From a virus: a stretch of DNA of 64,000 bases. Shown in pieces: positions 4,821 to 51,676 of the stretch. The stretch's first letter is position 1, and each line of letters opens with the position of its first letter. Made by a program: the position numbers and the translations under genes. The DNA lies in IMG/VR virus record IMGVR_UViG_3300042691_037929, positions 5,899 to 69,898 of that record, one strand, 5' to 3'. The notes under the pieces were generated by a model. It was not told where the DNA came from, did no database searches, and worked only from the letters and a program-made list of their open reading frames with translations.

Positions 4821-4885
4821 ATTCAAATAAAAAAAAAATATATATTTATTAATAGTGATAAAAAATAAAAAATAAACAATAAAAA

Positions 4886-9518: not shown

Positions 9519-12500
9519 ATGGCTTTTAATTATTCATACAATAAACAAGTAGTTCCGAGTGATTTATTTAATTCGGTAGTTGATGGATTGTCAATTACAC
9601 CAATGTATATTGACTATAATGCTCAAACATTTAATATAGATATTTGGTTTGAACAAGCATTAACTGCACCAGAAGAATCTATCTTAAATGATATTGTTGC
9701 AAATATAATATTTGTAGACAAATCTAATTATGCAACATTTGAAAATGTAACCTCTACAGAGGGTGACATTACTTCGTTAACAGCAAATACTATTGAAAGT
9801 AGTTTTTCGAACATTGGAGATTTAAGTGCGTCCACGATTTATTCGGGCAGCACTAACTTATATGATATTTTCCTAACATCAAGTGATGGAAATGATATAA
9901 CAAGAGTTCAGCCAGGGACAAATATAACAACAGGTGGAACTGCAAATAATCCTACAATAAATCTTGTAGATTCTCCATCAGTAAATAATATTGCATTTTC
10001 AGGAACAGCAACAGGAGGTAATATTTTTGCAACTCAATTAAGTGGTGGAACTATTTATTCGGGAAGTACAAATTTATATTCGATATTTGCACCAATTGGT
10101 TCTTCGGAGGGTGTACAAAATGTTTTGCCTGGCTCAAATATAACAACAGGAGGAACGGCTACAAGCCCAACAATAAATCTTTCAGAATCACCATCAGTCA
10201 ACAATCTTACTTTTTCAGGAACAGCAACGGGAGGTAATGCGTTTGCAACTCAATTAAGTGGTGGAACTATTTATTCTGGTTCAACAAATTTATATGATAT
10301 ATTTGTTGATTCAGTAAAATCGGGTTCAAACGTTACGATAGGCGGAACAAGTTCTAATCCGATAGTCAACATTACTGCATCACCTTCATTTAATAATTTG
10401 ACATTATCAGGAACAGCAACAGGCGGTAATGTGTTTGCAACTCAATTAAGTGGTGGAACTATTTATTCAGGAAGCACTGATTTATATAATATTTTTCTAG
10501 GATTAAATGATGATTATGTTAAAAATGTTGTAAATGTTGGAAAAGGCGGGAATGTAGAATTTTCATCAATAAAAGATGCCGTCGATTCAATTACCGCAGC
10601 AACAACATCAAATCCATACGTGGTTAAGGTTGGTCCAGGCATGTACATTGAAGATACTATTACAATGAAAACAGGTATCTCGATTGTAGCAAATTCACTT
10701 GGAAGTGTTTTAGTTATACCGACAGTAAATACAAACACTATATTTGTTGGTGCAGATGCGTCATCAATTGTTAACTTAGTTTTGACAAACGCTAGCGGTT
10801 CAGGAGGAAAAGCTGTTTACCATAATGGAACTGGCGGAACTGGGTTTTTAATTAAAGATTGTAATTTTAACGATAATGAAACTCAAGTTCATTGTTATGC
10901 CACTTCGGCTTCTTCAATAGTCTATATAGATAGGTGTAGTGTAACTGGAAATAACGCTTATGGGTTTAAGATAGAGAATACTGGCACAACTTTATCTCAG
11001 GTGATATTCACTAATGGTACATACAAAGATACAACATTGCCTGTAACAACCGATTTCTTTACAGTATCAGGAACTGGTTCAACATGTACTATTACAAATT
11101 CTACATTTAGAATTGCTCAATCAACAGGTTCAACATTTTTAAAAGCTCAAGATAGTGCTGACGTTAGAATCATTGGTTCAGTTATTAGAGGTTTTGAGAA
11201 TGGATTATATTCTTTATCAGGAAATGGTGCACCAAACATCATTTGTGATTCCTTAGGAATATCAGAATGTACAAATGATATTTTAATAGAGCATCCTGGA
11301 ACGACAGGTTATTTTAATGGTATCTCAGAGTTTTCTAAAATCTCGATAAATAATGACGCTCCATTTTATTTAACAAATAATGATACTAAAATTATTAAAG
11401 TCGCCAAAAAAGGAGAAGACTTTACATCTATTGCAGATGCTGTTAATTTTATTACAGACGCATCAAGTACTAATAGATATTTAATTAGTGTTGGGGCTGG
11501 AATTTTTTATGAGGATGAAATAGATTTAACAAATAAGCCGTTCATTAGTGTCGTCGGTGCAAGCATTCAATCGACTTTAGTAATTCCAAATACAGGTACT
11601 CAGCACTTGTTTAAGATGGGTAATAATTGTGAGATTTCATTTATGTCACTTAGTGGCGTCGGCAATGGTTATTCAGCTGTATATGTATATGACATTGGAG
11701 ATTTTGCACAAGCTCACAAAATCTCTATTATAGATTGTGATACAAATGTTCACGTAGAGTCTGTAACTCAAGATACAATATTCTATGGGGAATATATGGA
11801 TTTTAATGGTAATTATAGTTATGGAGCAAAAGCAGTTGCAAACAATAATTATCAAGCTTTCATTAATTTAGAAAACTACTATATTTTCCCTTCTGGTGAC
11901 GGAGTTCAAGTTGGTAACTTTGCGACAGGAAGTGGTGCAACTTTCAATATCCTATCTTCTTCTATGGCAGGAATGGGAAACACAGGAGAAACTGCTATTC
12001 ATATAGAGGATGGAGCTTCATTAGATTGTACTTCTGTTGATATAGACTCATTCTATTATGGAATTAGAAATGCGAATGTAGGAAGTGATTGCTCATTTGA
12101 CTTAGATGCTATTAGTATTACAAATTCTGGTCTTTATGATATTTCTATTGAAAATTCAACAACTACTGGAACTATACTTGGTTCAGCATCACATACTCAA
12201 ATTTTTAACGCTAGTAATTCTGTTTCTTGGCTTATATTAGATAGTACTGATGGAGAGTTAGATATCACCAATCAATTATCTGTAACATTTACAGATGGTA
12301 CACATACAGACTTATCAACAATATTGATAAAGGGTGCTACTATGGGGATTATCGAAGGTGGTGTTATAACAGAAGTGAGTGGATTAACTATTAATATAAG
12401 CACAGGTTTTGGGTATTTAGAAAAAGCTCCTAATACTAAGATATTGAAAAGAATTGATTGGGACTCTCAGGATTTGGTCTTACCAAGCAATTCTAATCTT

Positions 12501-15146
12501 TACATTTATTTCAATGAAAACGGAGTTTTATCTACATCTGGTTCTAGACCGAATTCGATAAATAATATAATTTTAGGCAGAGTTGTAACAAATTCATCTA
12601 TTGAGATTATTGATTTGTCTCCATTGAATGCAGAACATACTTCAAATAGATATTCTGATTTATTTACAGAAGCTATCGGACCTATATATGCAGATGGTTC
12701 TATCGTTACAGAAAACACGACGCCTTTCCACCTAGATGCATCATCGGGTAAATATTACTATTCAACAAACGAGTTTAAGCCTACAGGAGGTACTGATATA
12801 ACTTTTGTTCAATATAACAGAACTGGATTAACTGGTTGGACATCTTCAGCAACTACTGTTGTTACGAATTCACTATATGATAATAATGGTTCGCTATCTG
12901 CCTTATCATCATCTTATTATACAAAACACACATTTTATTTGATTGGAGATAGTATTTATGAGCAATATTTATTAGTTTTAGGTCAAAATCAATATGCAAC
13001 ACTTCTTGAAACAGAGGATGCGTTATTACCTACTCCACCAACCTATTTTTCAGATTCATTAGTGCAGATTGCGAATATATATGTTCAAGAGGGTGCTACT
13101 GGAATTACGCAAGTTGAAGATATTAGACCTATTATCGGATTTAAAGCGGGAGGCGTAAATGCTTCCTCAACACATGGTAACTTACTTGGTCTATCTGCTG
13201 ACGACCATACTCAATACTTGCTTGTTGATGGTGGTAGAGCTATGTCTGGAAATCTAGATATGGACTCAAACAACATAGTGAATGCAGGTACAATAAATGG
13301 TGTTTCAGCTCAAACACACTCTACAAGACACTTACCTAATGGAGCAGACCCTTTAAATACAGCAGCGCCTATAAGTATTTCAGATTCAAACTCAGAAGGT
13401 ATTGCAAATTCATTTGCTAGGTCAGACCACCAACATGCTCATGGAGTTCATAGTGGCGGAACAACCCACTCAGTTGCAGATTCTACAACGGCAGGATTTA
13501 TGTCTTCTACTGACAAGAACTACTTGGATTCATTACCAAGTCAGTTGAATACTAAATCTAGCTTGTCAGGAGCTACATTTACAGGGGCAGTTAATGCAAC
13601 ATCACTAAGCGCTACAACACTAAGTGGCGGAACTATACTTTCGGGCTCAACTAATCTTTATTCAATATTTGCGCCTATTGGCACTATTGGGAGTGGTGGT
13701 GTGCAAAGTGTGCGACCAGGCTCGAATATAACGACTGGTGGAACTGCAGAAAGTCCGATAATAAATATTGTAGATTCACCTTCATTTAATGGTTTAAATG
13801 CTTCTGGGAATACAATTTTAAACGCAACAACAGCAATAACTCAATATGTAGAAAGCTATTTAAATATAGGAAATGCGAACCCTGAAACTACAGCAACATT
13901 GCATGTGACTTCTTTATCTGCTCAAAATCAAACTACTGATTTTGAACAATTCGGGTTTGGTTCTAATTTTAGGATTAGAAGAACGAATGGTAGCCCTTCT
14001 TCTAAGTCAACATTGTTGAGTGGTGACGTAATAGGTAATTTAAATTTTGCTGGTTATGATGGGGTTTCAAATTCAGCCTCTCAGTCACGCATAAGAGTTT
14101 TAACAACTGAAGATTGGTCTCCTACAAATCGTGGGACAAAAATGGAGTTTTCAGTAACTCCAATTGGTTCTATAGATAATACAACTTGTTTAATTTTAAA
14201 TTCTGATTGTAGTGCTGTTTTTTCAGATGGTTTATCTGCTAAGACAATTTCTGCAACAACAATATTTTCAGGCTCAACAAATTTATATTCAATATTTGCT
14301 CCTATTGGTACTATTGGTGGAGGTGGCGTTAAGAGTGTTCGACCAGGTTCAAATATAACAACAGGAGGGACTGCGGAGAACCCAATAATAAATCTTGTAG
14401 ATTCACCTTCGGTTAATAATTTGAATATTTCTGGGCTAACGACTTCAACAGATGGAGCAACATTTGTATCCCTTTCAGGAACAAATATATTTTCAGGAAG
14501 TACAAATTTAAATGTTTATTTTGATAGCATTAATGCAAGGCTTGAAACAGAGGCTAATTTATCTGGCGCAACATTTACAGGAACAGTTAATGCTCCAACA
14601 TTAAGTGCGACTACATTCAGCGCCTCAAGTGCTACAGTTTTAAGTTCATTAAGATTCCCTGTATCACCTGTTTCTGGGTATATTTTAACATCAGATGCAA
14701 ATGGTAATGCAGCTTGGCAGGCAAGTCCTGTTGGAACAGGTGCAACGAAGGTAGATTTACAAGGTGTGTCAACTGGTTCAACCGCAACAGCGACATCGGC
14801 ATTTGTAGACGTTCCAGGCATGACGTTTACAACAAAAAACCTTGGTAGTTCGGCAACAACATATGTAGCAAGATTTAATGCTCAAATAAGTAATAATAAC
14901 AATGCAGGTTCTTCTACATTTGCTATATTAAGAAATAATGTTGTACAACCAAGCTCAGTAAGGACAGTATCAAATTCTGGTGCTGCCATGACCAACTCAA
15001 ACAGAAGTATATCAACATCTGCAACTATTACAGGTGTCACAAATGGTGATGTAATTAAAGTGCAGTTTAGTGCAGCAACTGGTACTGTAACTGTTACAAA
15101 CAGAGGTTTTGATATTTTTGGAATTTTAAATGTTAATTTAGTTTAA
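9519..15146 (+). CDS. Long tail fibre/tailspike (1875 aa) with two pectin-lyase-like beta-helix regions
   Basis: Two beta-helix entry motifs (FSSIKDAVDSI...VGPGMY, FTSIADAVNFI...VGAGIF), His motifs (DDHTQY, HSTRH, ARSDHQH) and about six shared fibre modules. Confidence 0.8.
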   Translation: MAFNYSYNKQVVPSDLFNSVVDGLSITPMYIDYNAQTFNIDIWFEQALTAPEESILNDIVANIIFVDKSNYATFENVTSTEGDITSLTANTIESSFSNIGDLSASTIYSGSTNLYDIFLTSSDGNDITRVQPGTNITTGGTANNPTINLVDSPSVNNIAFSGTATGGNIFATQLSGGTIYSGSTNLYSIFAPIGSSEGVQNVLPGSNITTGGTATSPTINLSESPSVNNLTFSGTATGGNAFATQLSGGTIYSGSTNLYDIFVDSVKSGSNVTIGGTSSNPIVNITASPSFNNLTLSGTATGGNVFATQLSGGTIYSGSTDLYNIFLGLNDDYVKNVVNVGKGGNVEFSSIKDAVDSITAATTSNPYVVKVGPGMYIEDTITMKTGISIVANSLGSVLVIPTVNTNTIFVGADASSIVNLVLTNASGSGGKAVYHNGTGGTGFLIKDCNFNDNETQVHCYATSASSIVYIDRCSVTGNNAYGFKIENTGTTLSQVIFTNGTYKDTTLPVTTDFFTVSGTGSTCTITNSTFRIAQSTGSTFLKAQDSADVRIIGSVIRGFENGLYSLSGNGAPNIICDSLGISECTNDILIEHPGTTGYFNGISEFSKISINNDAPFYLTNNDTKIIKVAKKGEDFTSIADAVNFITDASSTNRYLISVGAGIFYEDEIDLTNKPFISVVGASIQSTLVIPNTGTQHLFKMGNNCEISFMSLSGVGNGYSAVYVYDIGDFAQAHKISIIDCDTNVHVESVTQDTIFYGEYMDFNGNYSYGAKAVANNNYQAFINLENYYIFPSGDGVQVGNFATGSGATFNILSSSMAGMGNTGETAIHIEDGASLDCTSVDIDSFYYGIRNANVGSDCSFDLDAISITNSGLYDISIENSTTTGTILGSASHTQIFNASNSVSWLILDSTDGELDITNQLSVTFTDGTHTDLSTILIKGATMGIIEGGVITEVSGLTINISTGFGYLEKAPNTKILKRIDWDSQDLVLPSNSNLYIYFNENGVLSTSGSRPNSINNIILGRVVTNSSIEIIDLSPLNAEHTSNRYSDLFTEAIGPIYADGSIVTENTTPFHLDASSGKYYYSTNEFKPTGGTDITFVQYNRTGLTGWTSSATTVVTNSLYDNNGSLSALSSSYYTKHTFYLIGDSIYEQYLLVLGQNQYATLLETEDALLPTPPTYFSDSLVQIANIYVQEGATGITQVEDIRPIIGFKAGGVNASSTHGNLLGLSADDHTQYLLVDGGRAMSGNLDMDSNNIVNAGTINGVSAQTHSTRHLPNGADPLNTAAPISISDSNSEGIANSFARSDHQHAHGVHSGGTTHSVADSTTAGFMSSTDKNYLDSLPSQLNTKSSLSGATFTGAVNATSLSATTLSGGTILSGSTNLYSIFAPIGTIGSGGVQSVRPGSNITTGGTAESPIINIVDSPSFNGLNASGNTILNATTAITQYVESYLNIGNANPETTATLHVTSLSAQNQTTDFEQFGFGSNFRIRRTNGSPSSKSTLLSGDVIGNLNFAGYDGVSNSASQSRIRVLTTEDWSPTNRGTKMEFSVTPIGSIDNTTCLILNSDCSAVFSDGLSAKTISATTIFSGSTNLYSIFAPIGTIGGGGVKSVRPGSNITTGGTAENPIINLVDSPSVNNLNISGLTTSTDGATFVSLSGTNIFSGSTNLNVYFDSINARLETEANLSGATFTGTVNAPTLSATTFSASSATVLSSLRFPVSPVSGYILTSDANGNAAWQASPVGTGATKVDLQGVSTGSTATATSAFVDVPGMTFTTKNLGSSATTYVARFNAQISNNNNAGSSTFAILRNNVVQPSSVRTVSNSGAAMTNSNRSISTSATITGVTNGDVIKVQFSAATGTVTVTNRGFDIFGILNVNLV

Positions 15147-18300: not shown

Positions 18301-19968
18301 ATGAATAACGATTTAATTCAAGAATATATAAATTGCGCACAAGACCCAGTTTATTTTGCTAATAACTATGGATATGTTTTTGATATGAAAAAACAACAAG
18401 TATCAAAAATGAGTTGTTTTCCTTATCAAGAAGATTGTTTAAGAACTTTTAATGATAATCAAAATTCTATAGTATTAAAATCAAGACAAATGGGTTTATC
18501 AGTCATTTCTGCAATGTATGTTGCTTGGAGGCTTGTTTTTTGTTTTGATGAAAGAATTTTAGTTGTTGCCGATAATGGAAATGGAGCTGTAAGATTCTTA
18601 AATACTGTAAGGCAAGTTTTGGATAAATTGCCAGATTGGATGTTGCCAGATGAAAGACTTATAAATAATACAAAACAAATTTCTTTTTCTAATGGTTCTT
18701 GGGTAAAGGCTGTTGCAAGTAGCAAACAGGCAGGTCGTGGAGAATCTTTGACTTGCTTAATACTTGATGAGACTGCATTTATTGAACATGCACAAGATAT
18801 TTGGATGGGTGCTGGATTAGCTTTGGCCGCAACTCAAGGTAAATGTATTATGATTTCAACACCAAAAGGTACTGGTAATTTATATCACCAGACATGGGTT
18901 CAAGCAAGTAAGGGTCACGGAAGTTTTGTGCCAATAAAATTACACTGGTCTATACATCCAATTTTATCTGAAGGATTAGAACATAGAAAAGATGTAGATG
19001 GAAAAGAATATCCTTGGAGTCCTTGGTATGGTAAGGAATGTGATAGATTACACCACGATAAAGTTAAAATATCTCAAGAATTAGACTTATCTTTTGAAGG
19101 CTCTAGTGCTGTTGTTATTGATAATTCAATAATAATGAAATACAGAAGGGATATTGGCGATAAAAAACCAATATGTTATTTTGACTTTAAAAAAGATGGT
19201 GGAAGTTTTGTTGATTATGAAACAACTTTTCATATATGGCAAATGCCAAAAGAAGATGGAAACTACATAATAGGAGGAGACGTTGGTCGTGGAGATAGTA
19301 AAGACTACTCTACATTACAAATAATTGATGCAGACTCTTTAGAACAAGTTGGGGAATATCAAGGAAAAATAGTTCCAGATACATTTGCTGAACTTATATA
19401 TATAATCGGATTAAAATATAATACTGCATTTTTAGCTATAGAATGTAACAGCTTTGGTTTAGCTACTACATTAATGTTAAAAAATCAATTAAAATATCCT
19501 AATGATAGGATGTATATTTCTAAGTCTGCAGTAAAACTTTTCAATAGGTCTCATAATTATGTAGTAGAAAAAGACACAGATGTGCCAGGATTTCAGACAA
19601 CAGTTAAAACTAGACCGCTTTTAGTTAGTGCTATAGTTAAATATATGCGTGATATGCAGATTAAAATTAATTCTGACAGATTACTTATGGAGTTTGAAAC
19701 ATTTATTTACAATGGCGACAAAGTAGAGCATGCACCAGGATTTAATGATGACCTTATTTTTGCATTTGCAATCGCTCTTTTGATTAGAGATACTGAATTT
19801 GAATCTGTATTTTGGAATAAACAAAAAACTATGCAAATGTTAGATTTGATTAGTCATAGTAAAAATGACATTAATTCATTAGGTTTAGATGGCAAAGACA
19901 AAGAATCTTGGGAAGATGATGATGACTGGAATGATACTAATTGGTTATTTGGTCCAATAAAAGGATAA
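18301..19968 (+). CDS. terL: Terminase large subunit (T4 gp17-like)
   Basis: DPVYF, PYQ, Walker A KSRQMGLS, Walker B LILDE, ISTPKG, nuclease GGDVGRG...DYS and NDDL motifs. Confidence 0.96.
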   Translation: MNNDLIQEYINCAQDPVYFANNYGYVFDMKKQQVSKMSCFPYQEDCLRTFNDNQNSIVLKSRQMGLSVISAMYVAWRLVFCFDERILVVADNGNGAVRFLNTVRQVLDKLPDWMLPDERLINNTKQISFSNGSWVKAVASSKQAGRGESLTCLILDETAFIEHAQDIWMGAGLALAATQGKCIMISTPKGTGNLYHQTWVQASKGHGSFVPIKLHWSIHPILSEGLEHRKDVDGKEYPWSPWYGKECDRLHHDKVKISQELDLSFEGSSAVVIDNSIIMKYRRDIGDKKPICYFDFKKDGGSFVDYETTFHIWQMPKEDGNYIIGGDVGRGDSKDYSTLQIIDADSLEQVGEYQGKIVPDTFAELIYIIGLKYNTAFLAIECNSFGLATTLMLKNQLKYPNDRMYISKSAVKLFNRSHNYVVEKDTDVPGFQTTVKTRPLLVSAIVKYMRDMQIKINSDRLLMEFETFIYNGDKVEHAPGFNDDLIFAFAIALLIRDTEFESVFWNKQKTMQMLDLISHSKNDINSLGLDGKDKESWEDDDDWNDTNWLFGPIKG

Positions 19969-19972
19969 TCTA

Positions 19973-20000
19973 TTTACTTTTTTTTAAAAAAAACTATAAT
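19973..20000 (+). promoter_or_regulatory. TTTACT-N16-TATAAT promoter
   Basis: Lies 7 nt upstream of the ATG of the terminase paralogue. Confidence 0.65.
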
Positions 20001-20007
20001 ATGGTTT

Positions 20008-20658
20008 ATGGAGAACCTGTATGAAACATATTATAAAAATAATTTTTATCTTCCTGTTCTAAATTATTTGCCATTAGAAAAAGAAATTTCGAAGATTAGA
20101 GATTATCAATTAGATTTATTGAGAATTTTTCATAAATATAATAATGTTTCTGTTGTAAAGACAAGACAAATAGGTGCATCAACTATTTTAGCTTACTATA
20201 TTTCTTGTTTGATTTTATTAAATGATAGTTGTGAATATAAAAAAATTGTAATATTTACTCCAAACAAAGAGCTTTTTATGAATAAACTTTCTTATTTTTT
20301 GAGAAATAAAGAAGTTGAAGCCGCATATTATAACAAACACCGTTTAATTTATAATAATGTTGAAGTACATATAGTTAATCATATAGACCAACTTAGAGGT
20401 AATAACCCAGATATTTTTATAGCAGAAGAAATTACAGGTTTAGAAGAGGATAAATGTAACTTAATTCTTAGATGTTCACTATTTTTTAAAAAAAGCATAA
20501 TTGTTTCTTCTCTTGGCGGAAAAAGTGATAAAATCTTTAAAAAATGGCATTCAAATATAGTGAGCAAAACAAAAACATTTAAAAAAAGAATAATTTTAGA
20601 AAAAAAGAACAACATACTAAATGATGATTATATGTATTTTAATGCTTCATTTAATTAA
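20008..20658 (+). CDS. Truncated, diverged terminase ATPase-domain paralogue
   Basis: DYQ...VKTRQIGAS vs PYQ...LKSRQMGLS; LRGNNPDIFIAEE vs GRGESLTCLILDE; IIVSS vs IMIST; no nuclease domain. Confidence 0.85.
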   Translation: MENLYETYYKNNFYLPVLNYLPLEKEISKIRDYQLDLLRIFHKYNNVSVVKTRQIGASTILAYYISCLILLNDSCEYKKIVIFTPNKELFMNKLSYFLRNKEVEAAYYNKHRLIYNNVEVHIVNHIDQLRGNNPDIFIAEEITGLEEDKCNLILRCSLFFKKSIIVSSLGGKSDKIFKKWHSNIVSKTKTFKKRIILEKKNNILNDDYMYFNASFN

Positions 20659-20660
20659 AA

Positions 20661-20678
20661 AAAGCTCTTATGGGCTTT
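20661..20678 (+). terminator. Weak hairpin after terminase paralogue
   Basis: AAAGCTC-TTAT-GGGCTTT. Confidence 0.4.
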
Positions 20679-20716
20679 AGAAAAAGAAAATTTATATATT
20701 TATTAAAAAAGAAAAT

Positions 20717-22600
20717 ATGTCAGAAGAAAGTGTATTTATATCATTATTAGATAGATTAAAAAGAGGAAGGACTTCCAGAACATTACCAAGTGAAAGAGGT
20801 GTTTTAACAGGAAATGTTGCAGCACCAACATCTAATACTATGCAGCAAAAGCAACAAGACTTTTTAGATGTTCAATCTCAAAAAATAGCTCAAGATATAT
20901 ACTCAAGAAGTAATTATTATGACACTGATAGGCTTGGTGCATATAACGATTTTAGAGCCATGGATATGTCGCCAGAAGTTTCTGCTGCACTTGATATTAT
21001 TACTGATGAGTGTGTCACAAGAAATGAGAGAGGAGAAATACTTTCTATATACTCTGATAATCAAAGAATAAAAACTGTTTTAAAAGACCTTTTTAAAAAC
21101 AGGTTAAATATGGAATATAATTTAACTTTTTTAATTAGGGAAATGATAAAGTTTGGTGATACTTTCTGGAAACTTGAAATAGACCAAAATGAAGGAATCT
21201 ATGATTCTAGAGCTTTACCAGTTGCAGAGATTCACAGAGAAGAAGCGTTTGATGGAAATGTAAATTCATCAAGATTTAAGTGGGACGTAAACGGTATGTA
21301 TTTTGAAGAATTTCAAATTGCACATTTTAGATTAGTTTCTGATGGAACTAAATTGCCTTATGGTAGAAGTGTTTTAGACCCAGCAAGAAAGCTTTGGAAG
21401 CAATTACAGTTAGCAGAAGATGCTATGCTTGTTTATAGAATAATAAGAGCTCCTGAAAGAAGAGTTCATTATATAGAAGTAGGAAATCTTGAAGCTGGCG
21501 ATGTTCATCAATATGTTGAGAGAATAAAAAGAGAATTAAAGAAGTCTTCTATTGTTGACCAAAAAAGTGGTCAAATGAATTTGAAATATAATCCAATGAC
21601 AATGGAAGAAGATTATTTCATTCCTATTAGGGGTGATAAGTCTTCAAGAATAGAAACACTTCCTGGCGCTTCTAACCTTGGAGAAATTCAAGATGTCGAG
21701 TATTTGCAAAATAAATTATTTGCTGCATTAAAGGTTCCTAAACCATATTTGAATTATGCAGAATCAATGCCAGGAGGTTCAGCTTTATCTCAAGCAGATT
21801 TAAGATTTAGTAGAACCATAAATAGAATTCAAGAAAATGTAGTTATAGAATTGAGAAGAATTGCCAACATTCATCTTTTCCTTTTAGGATTTGAGGATGA
21901 TATGGACAATTTTGACTTAAAATTAACCAATCCTTCTACTCAGCAAGAATTGTTAAAGCTGGAAACAATGAAGGCAAGACTTGAGGTTTTTAAGGAAATT
22001 TATACTGGCGAAGCAACTTCTCCAGTTTCTTATACTTGGGCCATGGAATATATTATGGGATTCTCAAAGTCTGAAATTAAACAAATATTAAGACAGAAAA
22101 AAGTTGAAAAGAAAATGTTTTCTGAAATTGATATGGCTGCTGAAGAATATATGGAGACTGGTTTATTTGCTGATATTGATAGCAAATTTAAAGTTTCTTC
22201 AGGTCCAGCTGGAGAAGTTCAGGCTGGAGAAGCTATGCCTGGTGCATCTCCAGAAGCTGCTGCAGGAGGTCTTCCTGGCGCAGAAGACTTTGGTGGTGGA
22301 GCTGAAATGGGTGGAGGGCTAGAAGAGCCAGCTGCTGCTCCTGAAGCTGGAGGAGGAGAACCTACAGAATTAGCAGAATCAATTCTTTTTGAAGAAGTTA
22401 ATGTAAATAAAAAAGATAATTTAATAATTAAAGAACAAAGTGATGAAGAGCTTTTTGATAAAATTGAATTGAAAAACAAAAATTTAAATACAAAAACAAA
22501 AAGAATAATAGATGTAATAACAGATAGATTGAATAAAATAAATGAAGAAACTGGTTTGGATGAAAACGGTAATGATTTATTAAATAATGGAACAAATTAA
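20717..22600 (+). CDS. Portal protein (T4 gp20-like)
   Basis: PEVSAALDII, EDAMLVYRIIRAPERRVHYIEVGNL, EDYFIP, IETLPG, ALKVP motifs; G/A/E/P-rich tail. Confidence 0.96.
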   Translation: MSEESVFISLLDRLKRGRTSRTLPSERGVLTGNVAAPTSNTMQQKQQDFLDVQSQKIAQDIYSRSNYYDTDRLGAYNDFRAMDMSPEVSAALDIITDECVTRNERGEILSIYSDNQRIKTVLKDLFKNRLNMEYNLTFLIREMIKFGDTFWKLEIDQNEGIYDSRALPVAEIHREEAFDGNVNSSRFKWDVNGMYFEEFQIAHFRLVSDGTKLPYGRSVLDPARKLWKQLQLAEDAMLVYRIIRAPERRVHYIEVGNLEAGDVHQYVERIKRELKKSSIVDQKSGQMNLKYNPMTMEEDYFIPIRGDKSSRIETLPGASNLGEIQDVEYLQNKLFAALKVPKPYLNYAESMPGGSALSQADLRFSRTINRIQENVVIELRRIANIHLFLLGFEDDMDNFDLKLTNPSTQQELLKLETMKARLEVFKEIYTGEATSPVSYTWAMEYIMGFSKSEIKQILRQKKVEKKMFSEIDMAAEEYMETGLFADIDSKFKVSSGPAGEVQAGEAMPGASPEAAAGGLPGAEDFGGGAEMGGGLEEPAAAPEAGGGEPTELAESILFEEVNVNKKDNLIIKEQSDEELFDKIELKNKNLNTKTKRIIDVITDRLNKINEETGLDENGNDLLNNGTN

Positions 22601-23627: not shown

Positions 23628-26600
23628 ATGTTTATAGTATTTGATACAGAAACTACAGGCCTACCAGAAGATTTTAGCGCACCAATAACTGACTTTGATA
23701 ATTGGCCAAGAATAGTTCAATTAGCATGGAAAGTTTATGATGTAAATGGAAATGTTATAAGTACTTACAATAGAATTGTTAAGCCAGAAGGCTTTACCAT
23801 ACCGCCAGAGTCAATAAAGGTTCACAGAATTACAAATGAAAGGGCAAACTCAGAAGGATTACCTTTACTTGAAGTGTTAAACGAGTTTGTTCAATGTATT
23901 AAAGAATCAAAATTTTTAGTGGCTCACAATATTAGTTTTGATAATAAAATTACTGGTTGTGAGTTTTTGCGAATGGGAATGCATAATTATATGAATGATA
24001 TAATTCATGTTTGTACTATGAATTCAACAATTGATTATTGCAGAATACAAGGAGGTATGGGCTTAAAGCCGCCAACCTTAACAGAACTTCATAGTAAACT
24101 TTTCGGAAAAGGATTTGAAGATGCTCACGATGCATTAATTGACGTAGAGGCATTGGCTAAATGTTTTTTTAAATTAAAAGAAATAGGTGTTTTAGGTTTT
24201 GACGAAAATTGTATTCAATATTTAGATTCAAAATTTAGTGAGAAAAATATTTATGATAAATGGTCACAAAAAAATGGAGAACCAATAAGTCCAGTTAAAT
24301 TGGTAAACTTTGGGGTTCATACATATAACTCTATATTAGAAGGTGCCGCATCGGCTAGTGATTACATAAAAAAAGCAAAAGAATTTAATCATGATACTAT
24401 CGTTTTAACAGATAAAGGAAATATGTCTGGCTCTTTTGCTTTTTATCAAAAGTGTAAAAATGAAAAGATAAAACCAGTAATTGGTTGCGAGTTTTATTTG
24501 AATGATAGCATAGGAGGTGAATATGAAGAAAAAATACAAGACACAAATGTATTACAGAAAATAATAGTAAAAAACAAAGATGGATATGTAAATATTAACA
24601 GATTAAATTACCTATCTTTTACAGAAGGTTATTATAGAGTTCCAAGAATCAAAACTGATTGGGTTTCAGAAAATAAAGAAGGTTTAATTTTAACAACATC
24701 CTCTAAAGGTGGAATGGTTTCAAAATATGTTCAAAGAGGAAAATATGATTTGGCTGAAAATTACATAAAAAAAATGATTGAAATTTTCGGAAAACAATCA
24801 TATATAGCTGAAATATCATTAGAAGACAATCAAATACAGAGACAATATAACAAGTTTATTATCAACATGGCATCAAAATATGGAATGGCATTAATTGTTG
24901 CCAATGATGTATATTATGCCAAAGAAGAAGATTCTGTTCTTCAAGATGTTTTGAGTTCTATCGACCAAAAGAAGTCTATAAAAAAATCTAGAACAAAAGA
25001 AAATAGAAATATGAATTATGTTTCTGAGGACATTTTGTTAAACATGAATAAAGAGTTTGGCTACAATTATGATGAAAACTTTTTGAAAATGTGCATGATT
25101 ACATCTAATAGAGTAGCTTCTATTTGTGATTTTGAATTTGAAGTTGATATAGAAAAATACCCAGAATATAAACCTACTCAAGATGTAATTGAATATTTTG
25201 GAACAGATGATACTGAAGAAATAATAAAAAAATTATCTCATGCTAAATTAAATCAAAAATTAAAAATTTACGAAAAACAAGGTCCAATAGCAATAGATGA
25301 AGAAAAAGTAAAAGAGTATAGAAATAGACTTGATTATGAGATAGAAGTAATTAAGGAGAAGAAAATGGTTGATTACTTTTTAGTTGTATGGGAGCTTATT
25401 AGATATTGTGGAGAAAATAATATCGAAGTTGGTCCTGGGAGAGGTTCTGCGGCTGGCTCTTTATTATCTTGGTGTTTAGATATAACAAAAATAGACCCAT
25501 TAAGGTTTAAGTTGTATTTTGAAAGATTTTTGAACCCGACAAGAAAGGGTCCACCAGATATTGATATTGACTTTGAAACTGGTTCAGACGTTAAAACAGA
25601 TGAGTTTCTTTATAAAAAATATGGCAAAGAATGCGTATTCCCAGTTATTACATTTTCAACTTTTAACGAAAAAGGATGTTTAAAAGATGTTTCTAAGGCT
25701 TTTGGTCAAGATGGAGGCTTTGAATCTGATGTTTTTGCTGTTACGAAAGAAATGCCTAAAATGTTCATGAAATATGACGGCGGACTGAAAGAGTGGATTG
25801 AGGACTGGAAATATAATCAAGAAGCTTCTGAAAGAGTTAAAGACTGGTTAAATGACTCTAAAAATAAAAAAATTATAGATACAACTTTAACTCTACAAGG
25901 TCAAATAAGGAATTTAGGTAAACATGCTGCTGGAATAGTTATTACTCCTGGTCCAGTTTGGGACTATATGCCAATTAATGTAGTTAAGGGAGTTAGAGTA
26001 TCTGGCTTTCAAGAATCTGGTAGTGGAAAGGATTTATCAACATTAGGAATTCTTAAATTAGATAGACTTAATTTAACAACATTAAACATATTAAAAGAAT
26101 CTATAAGACTTGTAAAAGAGAGAAAAGGTATTGACATTACTGAACAGGTAAAATATGTTGATTTAGATAATAAAGAATTGTTTGAAGAATTAAGACTAGG
26201 AAACAATCAAGGTATATTTCAGTTTGAATCTGATGGTATGTCTAAATTAATTAAAGACATGCACATAGAAAGTTTTGAAGAAATGGTTGCCGCAAATGCA
26301 TTATATAGACCAGGGCCAATGGGTGTTGGGGCTCACGAAGAATATATAAGAAATAAAAAAGACCCAGAATCCATAAATCCAGTACACCCATCTCTTGAGC
26401 CTTTATTGAGAGAAACAAATGGTGTTCTTATTTTTCAAGAGCAACTTATGTTTATAGCTCATGAATTGGCAGGAATGAGCTTAGGTGAAGGTGACAATTT
26501 GAGAAAAGTTATGGATAAGGCTTCTAAAATAATTAAAAAAAGTTTATCAGGGGAAGAATTAGAAGATAAAGAAATAAATGACAAAAGTTACAAAGAATAT

Positions 26601-27611
26601 TCAAAGCTTTGGCAACAATTTAAGGAGGGTTGTAAAAAGAATGGCTTAGATGAAAATGCCATAAAGGATATAGAGGAATGGTTAATTAAGTATTTGGGAT
26701 ATTCTTTTAATAGAAGTCACAGTGTTAGTTATTCGTATGTTGCCATGCAAACTCTTTTTATGAAGAAATATTATCCTGCTGAATTTTATACTGCTTTATT
26801 GAATCACGCAAAAGATGACGAACAGTGGTTATCAGCAGCTATAATGGCTGCTTTTACAAAAGGCATAAAGATATTGCCACCAAGTAGAAAATCTAAGTGG
26901 GAATGGACAATGTTAGACAATGAAAATATTTTAATGGGATTTTCTAGTATTAATGGTATGGGAGAAATTGCTTATAATGAACTTCAGGAAGCCGATATAG
27001 AAAATATTAAAAAAGACGAATTTTTTATGCGTCAATTTTCCAAATTTAATAAAGCAAATTTTGAAGCGTGTTTGTGTGCTGGCGTTTTCGATGATTGGTC
27101 TGAATCAAGAGAGGAACTTCTTGAATTTAGAAAATTTAAAATTAAAAGAAACACTATGCAAATGGATTTATTTGGACAAAATAATTTTGATATAATGGAA
27201 GAAAGTTTGTATGGTAAGTTTGAGCCTACTCCAAAAGAAGAAAAATATAAACAATTTATTAAAGTTTGTAGTATTGATTTAGATATTTTTCATAAAATAT
27301 CACAATTAAAAGAGAACTTTAGAAATCAATATAATATAAGTGTTCATTCTGTTATAGAATTCGACAATCCAGACAAATATTATTATTTTGTTTTAAGAGA
27401 TTTTGTGCCAAAAATTTCAAAAAATGGAAAAAAGTTTTGGACTTTAGAGTTGAGTGATGGCGGAGCATCTGTTAAAGTTATCTTATGGGAAGATGGTTAT
27501 GATAGAGTAAAGGATTTATTAGAAAAAGGAGGAATTTATTTAACGAAATTTTCAAAAGATAAAAATTGGTTAAATTTTCAGGACGGATGTCAGTTTAGAA
27601 GGGTTTTTTAA
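23628..27611 (+). CDS. dnaE: DNA polymerase III alpha with fused N-terminal DEDDh 3'-5' exonuclease
   Basis: FDTETTG...AHNISFD...AHDALID exonuclease; PHP region; GRGSAAGS, PDIDIDF, KHAAG, GYSFNRSH; C-terminal OB fold. Confidence 0.96.
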   Translation: MFIVFDTETTGLPEDFSAPITDFDNWPRIVQLAWKVYDVNGNVISTYNRIVKPEGFTIPPESIKVHRITNERANSEGLPLLEVLNEFVQCIKESKFLVAHNISFDNKITGCEFLRMGMHNYMNDIIHVCTMNSTIDYCRIQGGMGLKPPTLTELHSKLFGKGFEDAHDALIDVEALAKCFFKLKEIGVLGFDENCIQYLDSKFSEKNIYDKWSQKNGEPISPVKLVNFGVHTYNSILEGAASASDYIKKAKEFNHDTIVLTDKGNMSGSFAFYQKCKNEKIKPVIGCEFYLNDSIGGEYEEKIQDTNVLQKIIVKNKDGYVNINRLNYLSFTEGYYRVPRIKTDWVSENKEGLILTTSSKGGMVSKYVQRGKYDLAENYIKKMIEIFGKQSYIAEISLEDNQIQRQYNKFIINMASKYGMALIVANDVYYAKEEDSVLQDVLSSIDQKKSIKKSRTKENRNMNYVSEDILLNMNKEFGYNYDENFLKMCMITSNRVASICDFEFEVDIEKYPEYKPTQDVIEYFGTDDTEEIIKKLSHAKLNQKLKIYEKQGPIAIDEEKVKEYRNRLDYEIEVIKEKKMVDYFLVVWELIRYCGENNIEVGPGRGSAAGSLLSWCLDITKIDPLRFKLYFERFLNPTRKGPPDIDIDFETGSDVKTDEFLYKKYGKECVFPVITFSTFNEKGCLKDVSKAFGQDGGFESDVFAVTKEMPKMFMKYDGGLKEWIEDWKYNQEASERVKDWLNDSKNKKIIDTTLTLQGQIRNLGKHAAGIVITPGPVWDYMPINVVKGVRVSGFQESGSGKDLSTLGILKLDRLNLTTLNILKESIRLVKERKGIDITEQVKYVDLDNKELFEELRLGNNQGIFQFESDGMSKLIKDMHIESFEEMVAANALYRPGPMGVGAHEEYIRNKKDPESINPVHPSLEPLLRETNGVLIFQEQLMFIAHELAGMSLGEGDNLRKVMDKASKIIKKSLSGEELEDKEINDKSYKEYSKLWQQFKEGCKKNGLDENAIKDIEEWLIKYLGYSFNRSHSVSYSYVAMQTLFMKKYYPAEFYTALLNHAKDDEQWLSAAIMAAFTKGIKILPPSRKSKWEWTMLDNENILMGFSSINGMGEIAYNELQEADIENIKKDEFFMRQFSKFNKANFEACLCAGVFDDWSESREELLEFRKFKIKRNTMQMDLFGQNNFDIMEESLYGKFEPTPKEEKYKQFIKVCSIDLDIFHKISQLKENFRNQYNISVHSVIEFDNPDKYYYFVLRDFVPKISKNGKKFWTLELSDGGASVKVILWEDGYDRVKDLLEKGGIYLTKFSKDKNWLNFQDGCQFRRVF

Positions 27612-30692: not shown

Positions 30693-33002
30693 ATGGAAAA
30701 TAAAGAAAGCAAAACAGTTATAACTGGAGTAATTAAAAGAGTTAAATTCCACAATCCAGCCAATGGATATGGAATTTTAAGTGTTGAGTTAATTGAAAAT
30801 CAAGATGTAAAAGACAACGTTACAGTTACTGTTAATCAACCAAAATTATACGAAGGTGTTACTATGAGTTTTACTGGAGATTGGATAAAACATCCTAAGT
30901 TCGGTAAACAATTTCAGGCAGAATCTTGCTATGAATTGCCGCCAGCCACAAAAGAGGCTGTAGTAAGATATTTAAGTTCTGGATTCTTTCCTGGTATTGG
31001 TCCAGCAACAGCCAGAAAAATTGTTAGTTATTTTGGCGATGATGCACTGGAGGTTTTCAGAAAAAATATTGATAGACTTTCTGAAGTTAAAGGTATCAAC
31101 AAAAAGAAACTTGATAGTTTAAAGGAGAATTGGAGACAAAATCAAGAAATGAATAATATTATGCTTTTTTTGCAAGAGCATATGGTTAACACTATTTTTT
31201 CTGTAAAAATCTATAAAGAATACGGTATAAACTCTATCCCAGTAATAAAAAAGAATCCTTATAAATTATCAACAGATATTCATGGTGTAGGCTTTGCTAT
31301 GTCAGATAAATTGGCAATGAGTTTAGGCTTTGATGAAAGAGGTGAAGAAAGAATAAATGCCGCTATACATCACATTTTAAGTCATAACCAAACTGACGGT
31401 CATTGTTATTTAACTGAAAGACAAATTAAGGGAAGAGTTAAAAGTCTTTTAGGTATAGATGTTTCAGGGCAAATTGAAGAAATACTGGAGAAGCAACAAT
31501 TAGAAGAGAAAATAGTATGTATAAATTTCTCTAAAGATAACGGAAGAGAAGAAAGAAGATATTATTCAAGAGATATATATTATGACGAAAGATATGTTGC
31601 AGAAAAGGTTATAAGGCTTGCCAAAAAGAAATATGTAAGCGATACAAGAGAGTTAAGGAATAGGCTTGTAGATATGCTTAGTAAATCTGAAATTAAATTA
31701 AGTGATGAACAGTTTGATGCTTGTATAGGCGTACTTTCAAACGGTCTTTCAGTTTTAACTGGAGGTCCTGGTGTTGGTAAGTCAACAACTGTAAAGTTTA
31801 TTTATGAAATATTGAGAAGCATCAATAAAGATGTTGTTTTGGCTGCACCAACTGGACGAGCCGCTCAAAGATTGATGGATATAATTGGAGAGGAAGCTAA
31901 AACAATACATAGACTTTTGAAGTGGGATGTTGCAAATAATAGGTTTAGAAAGTGTGAAAAGGATTTGCTGGAAGCTGATTTTATCATATTAGATGAATCT
32001 TCTATGATTGATATTAGATTGGCCGCATCTTTTTTGAGAGCAATATCTCCAGGGACTCAAGTGTTGATAGTTGGCGATAAAGACCAGTTACCTTCTGTTG
32101 GGCCTGGGAATCTTATGGCTGATTTTATTAAGAGCGAATGTATACCAATTTATAGCTTAACTAAAGTTTTCAGACAGGCTGAGCAATCGAAGATAATTAG
32201 TTATGCCCACACAATGAATAAAGGAGTCACACCAGATGTACAAACTCCTTTTGAAAAGCCAGAAATATGGCAAAATGGTACTGATTGTATGTTTATAGAC
32301 ACATCAATGAATCCAGAAAAAATCACAGAACCTTTTAGCACTTTAAAGTATGGAATGGATGCTCTGGATACTATTGTTAAATTGTACAAAGAAATAATAC
32401 CTAAATATATGGGTAAAGAAACTGAAATACAGATTTTAGCTCCAATGAACAAAGGTTCTATAGGAACTAAAGAAATTAACAAAAGAGTACAAGAAGCAAT
32501 AAATCCTAAGGCAGAAGGCAAAAATGAGTTAATAATAGGAGAAAGAGTTTTTAGAGAAGGAGATAGAGTTATACAAACTGCAAACAATTACGACCTAAAC
32601 GTTTTTAACGGAGATATTGGTTATATTAGGAGAATTAATACAGGAGACTCTAGTTTTATTGTAGACTATGGAAATAGCAAATTTTCTAAATTGATTCATT
32701 ATGAAAGGTCTAATTTAATTGAAATAGAATTAGCTTATGCAATCACAATACATAAGTCTCAAGGTAGTGAATTTAAATGTGTTATTATACCAATTTTAAA
32801 TCAACATTATATAATGCTTTATAGAAATTTGATTTATACTGGATTGACTAGAGCTAAAGCTATGGGAATACTTCTTGGGGAAAGAGAAGCATTTGAAAGG
32901 TCAATAAAAAATATTGACCCTAATATTAGACAAACTTCTTTGAAAAGATTTTTAAGAGAACACTATGAACAAATAGAAGCAGAATTAGAATTTTTAAATT
33001 GA
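30693..33002 (+). CDS. recD2: RecD2-like SF1B DNA helicase
   Basis: N-terminal OB/HhH (GIGPATA), TGGPGVGKST, APTGRAA, DESSM, GDKDQLPSVG, YAITIHKSQGSE. Confidence 0.95.
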   Translation: MENKESKTVITGVIKRVKFHNPANGYGILSVELIENQDVKDNVTVTVNQPKLYEGVTMSFTGDWIKHPKFGKQFQAESCYELPPATKEAVVRYLSSGFFPGIGPATARKIVSYFGDDALEVFRKNIDRLSEVKGINKKKLDSLKENWRQNQEMNNIMLFLQEHMVNTIFSVKIYKEYGINSIPVIKKNPYKLSTDIHGVGFAMSDKLAMSLGFDERGEERINAAIHHILSHNQTDGHCYLTERQIKGRVKSLLGIDVSGQIEEILEKQQLEEKIVCINFSKDNGREERRYYSRDIYYDERYVAEKVIRLAKKKYVSDTRELRNRLVDMLSKSEIKLSDEQFDACIGVLSNGLSVLTGGPGVGKSTTVKFIYEILRSINKDVVLAAPTGRAAQRLMDIIGEEAKTIHRLLKWDVANNRFRKCEKDLLEADFIILDESSMIDIRLAASFLRAISPGTQVLIVGDKDQLPSVGPGNLMADFIKSECIPIYSLTKVFRQAEQSKIISYAHTMNKGVTPDVQTPFEKPEIWQNGTDCMFIDTSMNPEKITEPFSTLKYGMDALDTIVKLYKEIIPKYMGKETEIQILAPMNKGSIGTKEINKRVQEAINPKAEGKNELIIGERVFREGDRVIQTANNYDLNVFNGDIGYIRRINTGDSSFIVDYGNSKFSKLIHYERSNLIEIELAYAITIHKSQGSEFKCVIIPILNQHYIMLYRNLIYTGLTRAKAMGILLGEREAFERSIKNIDPNIRQTSLKRFLREHYEQIEAELEFLN

Positions 33003-33449
33003 TAGAATTTCTTTTTTAATTCTTTCTATAACTGCGTTTCTATCTTTTTTTAGTTCTGATTCCCATACACGAAAGATATTGTAGCCCATTCCTTTTGCTA
33101 TAATATCTTTCCATTTATCGTTTTTTACACTTCTTTTCTGCATTTCATTTAATGTGGTATATTTTTCTGGGTTTGCATGAAAATAATCGCCATCTACTTC
33201 ACAAATAGTCTTTGTTGAGGGAATATAATAATCAAATATTTTTCCTTTTAATATTTTTTGAGATTCATATTCAATATTAAGTTCTTTTAATATTGATTCA
33301 AATTCTCTTTCTGGCCAAGTTTTATTTTTGTCCATTTTATAGGACTGTGCATTCAAATATTTAATTTTCTTTATTGGATTATTTGTTAAAGATTTTTTTT
33401 GTCTTCTCAGTATACTAGCTACTTTTTTCTTTTTTTCATATTCATTCAT
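32994..33449 (-). CDS. DUF559/Vsr-like endonuclease
   Basis: E..F...L, DYYIP, EVDGDYFH, D..K, RVWE motifs. Confidence 0.85.
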   Translation of the reverse strand: MNEYEKKKKVASILRRQKKSLTNNPIKKIKYLNAQSYKMDKNKTWPEREFESILKELNIEYESQKILKGKIFDYYIPSTKTICEVDGDYFHANPEKYTTLNEMQKRSVKNDKWKDIIAKGMGYNIFRVWESELKKDRNAVIERIKKEILSI

Positions 33450-33541: not shown

Positions 33542-34426
33542 ATGTCAGAAGAAATTAATTTAGGAGGAACAAGACCTCAACAACAAGCAAGCAGCAATCC
33601 TTTAGAGCCTCAAGTTACTACAAGAAATCAAGAAATCGCTCAAAAACATGATATACCAGAGCAGTTCATAGATACTGAATTTATGGTTCCTACTGATTTT
33701 GTTGATTTACCTTCAAAGGGAATATTTTATGCAAATAAAAAGAGTTCAGTAGAAGTTAAATATTTGACTGCAGAAGATGAAAACATTCTTACTAGTGGTG
33801 ATTTAATTAAGAGTGGAAAAGTTTTAGACGTTTTATTGGATAATGCAATAGTTGATAGAGAAATAAATTCTGAAGATTTATTGACTGGAGACAGAAATGC
33901 AATACTAATAAACCTTAGAATTACTGGTTATGGTGATGAATATGAAACAAAAACTAATTGCCCTAGTTGTGGACATACAAATAAGAGAGAAATACTTCTT
34001 TCAAGTTTAAGCTCAAAAGAAGTTCCATTTAAGCCAGATTCTGATGGAATGTTTACTGTTCAGCTACCTAAATGTAAAGCTAATATTAGATTTAGACTTT
34101 TAACTGGGAGGGATGAGCAAAGACTTAGAAAAGTTGCTGAACTTGGCAAGAAAACAATAGGTAAAAATGTAAAAGTTGAAACTATATTGACAGAAAAGTA
34201 TCTTTTGCAAATTATGGATGTAAATGGTAATACTGACAAAACCTATATTAAAAAATTCATATCAGTAATGCCTATTGCAGACAGCTTATTTTTTAGAGAA
34301 TATTTGTCACAAGTTGAACCAGGAATAGATTTAAATCATGATTTCGAATGTGAAAATTGTGGTAAAAATTATGAACAAGAAGTTCCAATTACTGCAAAAT
34401 TATTTTGGCCAAACGCTAATGTATAA
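33542..34426 (+). CDS. Baseplate hub/tail assembly chaperone (T4 gp26-like)
   Basis: LPSKGIFY, YLTAEDENIL, DRNAIL..LR...YG, CPSC and CENC; ends LFWP. Confidence 0.75.
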   Translation: MSEEINLGGTRPQQQASSNPLEPQVTTRNQEIAQKHDIPEQFIDTEFMVPTDFVDLPSKGIFYANKKSSVEVKYLTAEDENILTSGDLIKSGKVLDVLLDNAIVDREINSEDLLTGDRNAILINLRITGYGDEYETKTNCPSCGHTNKREILLSSLSSKEVPFKPDSDGMFTVQLPKCKANIRFRLLTGRDEQRLRKVAELGKKTIGKNVKVETILTEKYLLQIMDVNGNTDKTYIKKFISVMPIADSLFFREYLSQVEPGIDLNHDFECENCGKNYEQEVPITAKLFWPNANV

Positions 34427-35409
34427 TGTCTTATAGAGATATAGTCATAAATAATAATGTGCCCTTTGATGAGATTTTGATTCCATCTAAGGGCATTTTT
34501 TATGAAAACAAAAAAGATAGTTTTCTTGTTAAATATTTAACTGGGAAAGAGGAAAATATCTTGACATCACCTACATTAATTGATTCAGGAAAAGCTGTTG
34601 AAATGGTAATGAGCTCATGTATATTAGATTGGGAGGGTGATGTTAAGGATGTTTTGGTTGGAGACATAAATGCTGTAATCATATATTTACGTTCAACGTC
34701 TTATGGGGATAATATAAAATATGAACACCAATGCCCAAAATGTAAAACAAATTCAGAAAATACTTTAACTCTTTCTTCTTTAGAAATGAAAGATGTTACA
34801 GAACTCCCAGATGAAAATGGTTTATTTACTTTTGTTTTACCAAAGATGAAAATAAAAGGAGAAAATGTTGTTATAAAATTTAAGCCCAAAACTTTAGGTG
34901 ATGAAATTAAAATACTTAAAGAAATTGAAGTAAACAAAAAAGTTTTAGGAGATGTTATATTTGACAAAAAAGTAGAGATAACTTACAGAAATCAAATAGT
35001 TAGCATAAATGATATAGACGATGACTCTTTTAAGTTAAAAATAATTAAAAGTATGCCTTTGGGAGATTCTTTAAAATTTAGAGAATTTATTGATAGTGTT
35101 GAACCTGGAATTGACAATACAATTAATAGCGAATGCTATTCTTGTGGATTTGTTCAAAAAAATAAAATTCCAATTGATTATAATTTTATAAGATTAGGAA
35201 CAGAATATAGGGAAAATATGATGGAAGAAATATTTCTTATTTCATATTACGGAAAAGGTGGATTTACCAGAAATGATGTTTTTAATATACCTGTAAATGA
35301 AAGAAGGTGGATTTTACAGAGAATACAAGAAGAGGTTGACAAAAGGAATCAAGCAGAAAGAGAAGCTGTAAATAAAGCAAAAAGTCAATCAAACTCAAGA
35401 AGACTATAA
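34426..35409 (+). CDS. gp26-like paralogue with gp51/T-like C-terminal extension
   Basis: IPSKGIFY, YLTGKEENILTS, CPKC, CYSC, then EEIFLISYYGKGGFTRNDVFNIPVNERRW. Confidence 0.75.
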   Translation: MSYRDIVINNNVPFDEILIPSKGIFYENKKDSFLVKYLTGKEENILTSPTLIDSGKAVEMVMSSCILDWEGDVKDVLVGDINAVIIYLRSTSYGDNIKYEHQCPKCKTNSENTLTLSSLEMKDVTELPDENGLFTFVLPKMKIKGENVVIKFKPKTLGDEIKILKEIEVNKKVLGDVIFDKKVEITYRNQIVSINDIDDDSFKLKIIKSMPLGDSLKFREFIDSVEPGIDNTINSECYSCGFVQKNKIPIDYNFIRLGTEYRENMMEEIFLISYYGKGGFTRNDVFNIPVNERRWILQRIQEEVDKRNQAEREAVNKAKSQSNSRRL

Positions 35410-51640: not shown

Positions 51641-51672
51641 TTTGTTTTATTTAACTTTTTGATTTACATTTG
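51641..51672 (+). promoter_or_regulatory. Bacteroidota-type promoter for polA-like gene
   Basis: Exact TTTG-N20-TACATTTG, ATG at 51677. Confidence 0.7.
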
Positions 51673-51676
51673 CAAT

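Follow-up and report, generated by a model that had tools for sequence, protein, structure and literature searches.

What is a stand-alone copy of the ATPase core of the large terminase (TerL) doing between the genes for full-length TerL and the portal protein of a phage? The question is raised by an open reading frame, here called orfX, in a 64,000-nt stretch of viral DNA (the window) that comes from a 69.9-kb IMG/VR viral record (IMGVR_UViG_3300042691_037929) with a completeness estimate of 24%. The DNA is that of a large AT-rich myovirus (29.9% GC) that encodes tail sheath and tube, baseplate proteins, a DnaE-type polymerase, and ribonucleotide reductase. The first-pass annotation had proposed an ATPase-only terminase gene between terL and portal, and an intact ORF is indeed found at that place. 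The features of the locus are as follows.

18301 to 19968, plus strand: TerL, the full-length large terminase (555 aa), of the type from which orfX derives.
19969 to 20007, plus strand: spacer from the terL stop to the orfX start, with a sigma-70-like match (19973 to 20000) and a conserved element, TCTATTTACTTTTT, that relatives lacking orfX have as well.
20008 to 20658, plus strand: orfX, a stand-alone TerL-type ATPase core of 216 aa, intact ORF.
20661 to 20678, plus strand: weak 7-bp hairpin (-7.9 kcal/mol) downstream of the orfX stop codon, in the portal-proximal part of the spacer.
20696 to 20704, plus strand: ATATTTATT motif, a likely late-promoter element, 21 nt before the portal start.
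20717 to 22600, plus strand: portal protein, T4-type, 627 aa (PF07230, E = 3.6e-77).

Elsewhere in the window, the DnaE-type polymerase (23628 to 27611, plus strand, 1,327 aa) carries its exonuclease part at the N terminus (phrog_405 and phrog_192), and a separate 548-aa ORF (51659 to 53305, plus strand) matches the DNA polymerase family phrog_17 with its C-terminal half (E = 3.3e-31). Two paralogues of the baseplate hub family phrog_150 are found in tandem at 33542 to 34426 and 34426 to 35409 on the plus strand (E = 5.9e-18 and 2.1e-14, respectively). The 1,875-aa product of 9519 to 15146 (plus strand) has no PHROG match; it contains many 'SGGTI(Y/F)SGSTNLY'-type repeat segments and a middle part that appears pectate-lyase-like by eye, and is probably a fibre or spike. 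Running opposite to its neighbors, a helicase/exonuclease V-like gene and the baseplate hub genes, is a 151-aa HNH/homing-endonuclease-like ORF (32994 to 33449, minus strand; phrog_559, E = 3.1e-14) that has the look of a free-standing mobile nuclease.

BLASTP aligns orfX with the TerL of its own phage (E = 5e-7, 32% over 65 aa), and its residues 19 to 185 match the PHROG family phrog_2, 'terminase large subunit' (E = 1.9e-6). When the profile of the orfX family, built on a 13-sequence alignment, is compared with the clade TerL alignment, hhalign matches orfX positions 6 to 187 to TerL positions 16 to 206 with a probability of 99.1% and an E value of 5.1e-19. A hmmsearch of PDB sequences with the same profile retrieves gp17 chains over positions 8 to 176 (E = 3.4e-17 to 2.6e-16). 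The AF2 model of orfX (pLDDT 73.4, pTM 0.77) consists of a single ATPase domain with the TerL ATPase fold; its fold match to 8dgc indicates nothing beyond that common TerL fold. Pfam returns no family for the window orfX at E <= 1, and the Terminase_6N model (PF03237) gives weak matches to 6 of the 13 family members (best E = 3.4e-4) that stay below its gathering threshold; the TerL kinship of orfX rests on profile and fold, not on this model.

The Q motif, P-loop, Walker B, and C-motif that define the N-terminal ASCE ATPase domain of TerL are all found in orfX. The RNase H-like nuclease domain is absent, as the alignment ends at about residue 206 of the 555 residues of TerL, and searches of Pfam and PHROGs detect no nuclease family in orfX. 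Profile, hhalign, and fold thus agree with the structural side of the earlier proposal, a TerL copy reduced to its ATPase, including the loss of the nuclease domain. A small terminase (TerS) was considered as a candidate identity and rejected: the fold of orfX is that of an ATPase core, and the gene is missing in one lineage of relatives as well as in the phages Mel-JY01 and immuto.

The family HMM gives 87 to 97 bits with the TerLs of its own clade, 84.6 bits with that of the Microcystis phage Mel-JY01, 77.7 bits with that of the Flavobacterium immuto phage, 63 to 66 bits with gp17, and 1.9 bits with the TerL of phage 186. Because the TerLs of its own clade score highest, orfX most likely descends from the TerL lineage of these same phages. 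A lysine-first P-loop (K-x-R-Q-x-G-hydrophobic-S/T) is common to orfX and the clade TerLs, whereas gp17 has G-K-T at this place. The N-terminal ATPase domain of T4 gp17 (PDB entries 2o0h, 2o0j, and 3cpe; Pfam Terminase_6N) is the closest known structure type. Unlike gp17, orfX is a stand-alone protein of 216 aa that lacks the nuclease domain and is accessory and exchanged rather than part of the core gene set; the A-E-E Walker B of the window allele is a further difference from gp17.

The family is small. An exhaustive HMMER pass through 1.84 billion cluster representatives (E <= 1e-3) retrieved 10 proteins, all of 151 to 239 aa, in clusters of 1 to 4 members each. The family comprises 14 distinct sequences, 7 from the window and related loci and 7 from the HMMER pass; 13 of these are full-length, and the remaining one, P0005, was left out. 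P0005 is a 151-aa protein, encoded on a 723-bp contig, of which only the first ~93 residues align, perhaps as a result of a frameshift or misassembly. Contigs that carry family members reach 298 kb (P0002) and 411 kb (P0010), lengths that mark the carriers as jumbo phages. Searches with single sequences returned little: with the window orfX alone, no relatives were found among the viral contigs, a k-mer protein search returned only orfX itself, and the cultured phages yielded only a TerL fragment match. Single-protein scans of the viral contigs with P0008, P0002, and P0010 and of the metagenome contigs with P0008 and P0013 likewise found none. PADLOC assigns the window orfX to no family; one of the 13 members matches mad2 (E = 8.1e-6) and one matches PDC-M38B. 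The ESM Atlas contains many clusters of Terminase_6N-only proteins of 190 to 275 aa, which are not countable as stand-alone genes since several are labelled fragments. The cluster of P0006 and P0012 is named 'ribonuclease HI' in one source despite the missing nuclease part, probably by mis-transfer from full-length TerL.

The motifs quoted by the first-pass annotation (DYQ, KTRQIGAS, LRG, FIAEE, and IIVSS) are all present in the translation of orfX, where they correspond to Q34, the Walker A residues K51-x-R53-Q54-x-G56-x-S58, L-R130-G131, a Walker B variant A-E140-E141, and the C-motif S167-S168. The TerL of the same phage has the Walker A sequence KSRQMGLS and a canonical Walker B, LILDE. 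Five residues (Q34, R53, G56, S167, and E198) are invariant in all 13 full-length members. The Walker A Lys is kept in 12 of 13 (Met in P0009), the Walker B Asp in 10 of 13 (replaced by Glu in P0006, P0009, and the window orfX), the catalytic Glu in 11 of 13 (Asp in P0007 and Asn in P0009), and the putative trans-acting Arg of the L-R-G motif in 10 of 13, being lost in the other 3.

These counts divide the proposal of a catalytically impaired protein in two. Impairment may hold for the window allele, in which the Walker B Asp is replaced by Glu, but fails as a trait of the family, most members of which have the canonical Asp and Glu; the altered Walker B is a feature of the allele and not a hallmark of the family. 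The window allele keeps the catalytic Glu, the Walker A Lys, Arg, and Gly, and the Q motif. In T4, gp17 Walker B changes of the E-D type abolish hydrolysis. By analogy with gp17, the window allele is likely to bind ATP without hydrolyzing it efficiently. The gp17 crystal entries 2o0h and 2o0j have E-D at the Walker B spot, and their titles describe mutant proteins bound to ATP or ADP, which fits Walker B changes that spare nucleotide binding. The drift of a minority of members at catalytic positions would suit selection for fold and binding over turnover, and the retention of every catalytic residue in most members would fit a working ATPase equally well as a mimic.

Less remains of the claim that orfX sits in a promoter-hairpin cassette of its own. 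The TTTACT-N16-TATAAT element at 19973 to 20000 is one of 44 sigma-70-like sites between 17000 and 23700, compared with 40.2 +/- 6.8 in shuffled sequences. No terminator-like site was called downstream of orfX; the hairpin at 20661 to 20678 has a z score of -1.59, 21 of 200 shuffles fold equally well, and a U-tract is absent. In the five relatives without orfX, terL and portal are separated by a 97-bp spacer that has the TTTACT element too, with a small hairpin at the corresponding place, so both belong to the terL-portal spacer. A sigma-70 promoter and an intrinsic terminator as cassette-specific signals are rejected in view of the shuffles and these relatives.

The ATATTTATT motif stands out from the background, with 17 matches against 6.7 +/- 2.6 expected, a number reached in 0 of 100 shuffles. 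Eight of its nine plus-strand copies sit 11 to 49 nt upstream of gene starts, that of portal included, and the genes downstream are mostly structural or unassigned (further sites are found, e.g., at 4842, 8244, 17161, 38550, 39285, 42497, and 46459). It is likely to be a late-promoter element of this phage clade. The motif is absent before orfX, which may be read through from terL. At loci L006, L007, L013, L015, and L016, the 3' end of the orfX homologue runs into the conserved element upstream of portal, and the last residues of these five proteins (...KEKLNIY) are encoded by the spacer that contains ATATTTATT, which is why the C terminus is conserved while the body diverges.

Presence of orfX was compared across 13 viral contigs whose TerL and portal proteins are ~80% and ~77% identical, respectively, to those of the window. 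An intact homologue is found at the same terL-portal site in 8 of them, as 6 distinct sequences of 215 to 241 aa with 25 to 37% identity to the window orfX. The other 5 contigs, which lack it, represent one near-identical lineage in five records; in a 232.5-kb, 88%-complete record of this type, the family profile matches TerL only. In the nearest cultured phages, Mel-JY01 and immuto, terL is directly followed by portal. The gene is thus dispensable, one lineage having no copy at all. The terL-portal position is based on nine loci of one clade, a set that does not include P0002 and P0006 to P0010.

Frequent frameshifts among the homologues would have spoken against a functional gene, and this is not the picture seen: all 8 homologues on viral contigs are intact. 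The window allele also occurs in contig pieces from 4 further runs of four studies, none of them marked as a possible source, with 0 differences and 0 indels. No RNA run was among the 24 runs listed. Exceptions to the intact picture are P0005 and the homologue at L016 (L016:3076-3720), which has a 17-aa in-frame deletion relative to those at L006 and L015.

The history of orfX differs from that of its neighbors. Between L006 and L007, dS is 0.21 in terL, 0.21 in portal, and 0.90 in orfX, and amino acid identity is 99%, 97%, and 65%, respectively. The values for terL, portal, and orfX are 1.19, 1.31, and 0.053 between L006 and L015; 1.56, 1.14, and 0.21 between L006 and L016; and 1.45, 1.57, and 0.225 between L015 and L016. 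Sliding-window identity between L006 and L007 drops from ~96% to 52 to 77% inside orfX (one window, 90%), and the drop extends from ~20 nt past the start codon to ~18 nt before the stop. Between L006 and L015, identity climbs from 78 to 92% to ~97% within orfX, with a sharp edge on the portal side. The GC content of orfX, 22.9% against 31.2% for terL and 32.6% for portal, is foreign-like. Hence, orfX moves between related phages as a discrete cassette at a fixed terL-portal site, independently of its flanks. This cassette-like exchange of an ATPase-only TerL paralogue is new and is the most solid result of the analysis. The discordant dS values are evidence of recombination and not of its reason, as a position between two highly conserved genes makes any gene easy to exchange.

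Selection on the exchanged gene is weaker than on its surroundings but evident. The dN/dS ratio of orfX is 0.24 to 0.55 in the six pairs compared, against 0.025 to 0.043 for terL and 0.046 to 0.085 for portal. The gene is under purifying selection, with a constraint roughly ten times looser than that on terL and portal; direct signs of positive selection were not found, the ratio being below 1 in all six pairs.

Free-standing homing-endonuclease cassettes sit between conserved genes of T4-like phages. The orfX cassette resembles them in being optional, AT-rich, and precisely inserted between two conserved essential genes, in its sporadic occurrence (8 of 13 contigs against 5 of 13), in its transfer independent of the flanks, and in its sharp edges. 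However, homing-endonuclease cassettes encode a nuclease (GIY-YIG, HNH, LAGLIDADG, etc.), and no such family is detected in orfX by Pfam or PHROGs.

A closer parallel in architecture is found in coliphage 186, the record of which lists a 248-aa 'W protein, similar to Orf12' (AAC34147.1) between the terminase and portal genes. W aligns with residues 125 to 371 of the phage 186 TerL (37% identity over 248 aa, E = 3e-44) and, like orfX, is an ATPase-only TerL paralogue located between terL and portal. The two show no specific kinship: hhalign of W with the orfX family gives a probability of 17% over 16 Walker A columns, and the family HMM scores W at 4.9 bits. W also keeps the D-E Walker B, unlike the A-E-E of the window orfX. 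As W and orfX each derive from the TerL of their own phage, they are convergent, and the sequence comparisons indicate that the ATPase-only TerL architecture arose independently at least twice, in the orfX clade and in coliphage 186. No function for W was found in the freely readable part of the literature on this protein.

A third comparison comes from bacterial defense. Ksap2, a small phage protein with a TerL-ATPase-like fold, activates KpAvs2; the accessible part of the report describes it as weakly similar in structure to a single phage TerL, that of D6E, and as lacking significant homology to other phage TerLs (PMC11564622). Unlike Ksap2, orfX has clear sequence homology to TerL, and whereas Ksap2 is a defense trigger, such a role is not established for orfX.

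We tentatively prefer, at somewhat less than even odds, the reading that orfX is an accessory mimic of the TerL ATPase that serves in a conflict, either with a sensor of the host or with the packaging motor of a rival, the Avs case included. The protein would resemble the TerL N-domain in its nucleotide pocket and overall surface, and would neither cut DNA nor serve as a complete packaging subunit; with pocket and surface kept and cutting and packaging lost, it would occupy or titrate a partner of the TerL ATPase domain. Since TerL and portal of the same phage hardly vary, in contrast to the replaced and diversified orfX alleles, that partner is more likely to be variable and external, candidates being a host TerL sensor (an Avs-like STAND protein) or a packaging motor that belongs to a competitor, be it another phage or a satellite. 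A gene that is optional, allele-swapped, and fast-evolving yet selected would fit the idea of a mimic or decoy. Given the activation of Avs2 by Ksap2 in the accessible part of that report, a TerL-ATPase-like protein could also be a liability rather than a shield.

The main rival, of lower probability, places orfX in the packaging motor of its own phage, as an auxiliary or regulatory subunit: bound to the TerL ring or the portal, or built into the ring, it would use ATP binding as a switch with which to adjust initiation, ATPase firing, or termination. The same-strand location next to both motor genes, terL and portal, possible cotranscription with terL in the absence of a late-type motif of its own, the conservation of ATP-site residues in most members, and the independent paralogue W at the equivalent place in coliphage 186 are all consistent with such a subunit. 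However, a widespread lineage does without it (5 contigs, with no second copy in the 88%-complete record), as do the nearest cultured relatives, and 3 of the 13 full-length members have lost the putative trans-acting Arg. Moreover, TerL and portal are 79 to 99% identical across lineages, whereas orfX is 25 to 93% identical and swapped independently, which is unexpected for a partner of invariant proteins.

The narrower version of the mimic, in which orfX is a decoy for TerL-sensing Avs/STAND receptors and occupies them but leaves them inactive, is doubtful when taken alone. Avs proteins bind TerL, the ATPase domain included: the contact between KpAvs2 and the SECphi18 TerL was predicted and co-immunoprecipitated, with the predicted contact on the ATPase domain, according to the accessible part of the report (PMC11564622). 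The accessory, exchanged, and diversifying pattern of orfX is also typical of counter-defense genes. On the other hand, the anti-Avs proteins named in the accessible part of a second report are not TerL mimics, ORF55 being described as a DNA ligase and ORF83 as DprA/Smf-like with a predicted Rossmann fold (bioRxiv 10.1101/2025.06.06.658234), and the one small TerL-ATPase-like protein reported in the accessible part of the first is a trigger of Avs2 and not a blocker (PMC11564622). The 8dgc match does not help, since it reflects only the common fold, and no description of a TerL-like decoy was found in the literature searched on Avs/terminase decoys, anti-Avs proteins, and truncated TerL paralogues.

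Equally doubtful is a passenger, selfish or neutral: part of a duplicated TerL would persist and spread only through the long homology arms of its conserved flanks and bring the phage no benefit. Such a passenger would account for the presence/absence polymorphism with discordant dS, the low GC content, the relaxed constraint (0.24 to 0.55 against 0.025 to 0.085 in the flanks), the deletion at L016, and the truncated 151-aa P0005. Ratios below 1 in every pair, ORFs intact at 8 of 8 loci, and ATP-site residues that stay invariant at 25 to 40% identity argue against it, as does a protein that has no nuclease or other drive mechanism and is modelled as an ATPase fold throughout. The idea that orfX is what remains of a duplicated terL on its way to a pseudogene, to which the Walker B change and the missing Pfam match of the window copy might point, is largely refuted and very improbable in view of the intact frames of all 8 homologues, the purifying selection, the identical allele in 4 additional runs, and the confident model (pTM 0.77). 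Both the passenger and the decaying duplicate suit the selection data less well.

Few phage proteins are as conserved as TerL, which is also one of the main targets of pattern-recognition immunity in bacteria. The boldest extension of the preferred mimic reading, and a long shot, is that orfX and the W protein of phage 186 would be the first phage 'pattern mimics', nuclease-less TerL ATPase copies that sequester or jam TerL-sensing STAND/Avs proteins or a rival motor and are maintained beside terL as swappable alleles under frequency-dependent selection. For annotation, orfX-like ORFs should be neither named 'terminase large subunit' nor dismissed as fragments. An optional, traded TerL ATP-binding core that arose twice, in a clade of freshwater jumbo myoviruses and in coliphage 186, suggests recurrent use, and phage 186 would offer a tractable system in which that use, be it packaging modulation, sabotage of competitors, or blunting of TerL-sensing immunity, may be approached.
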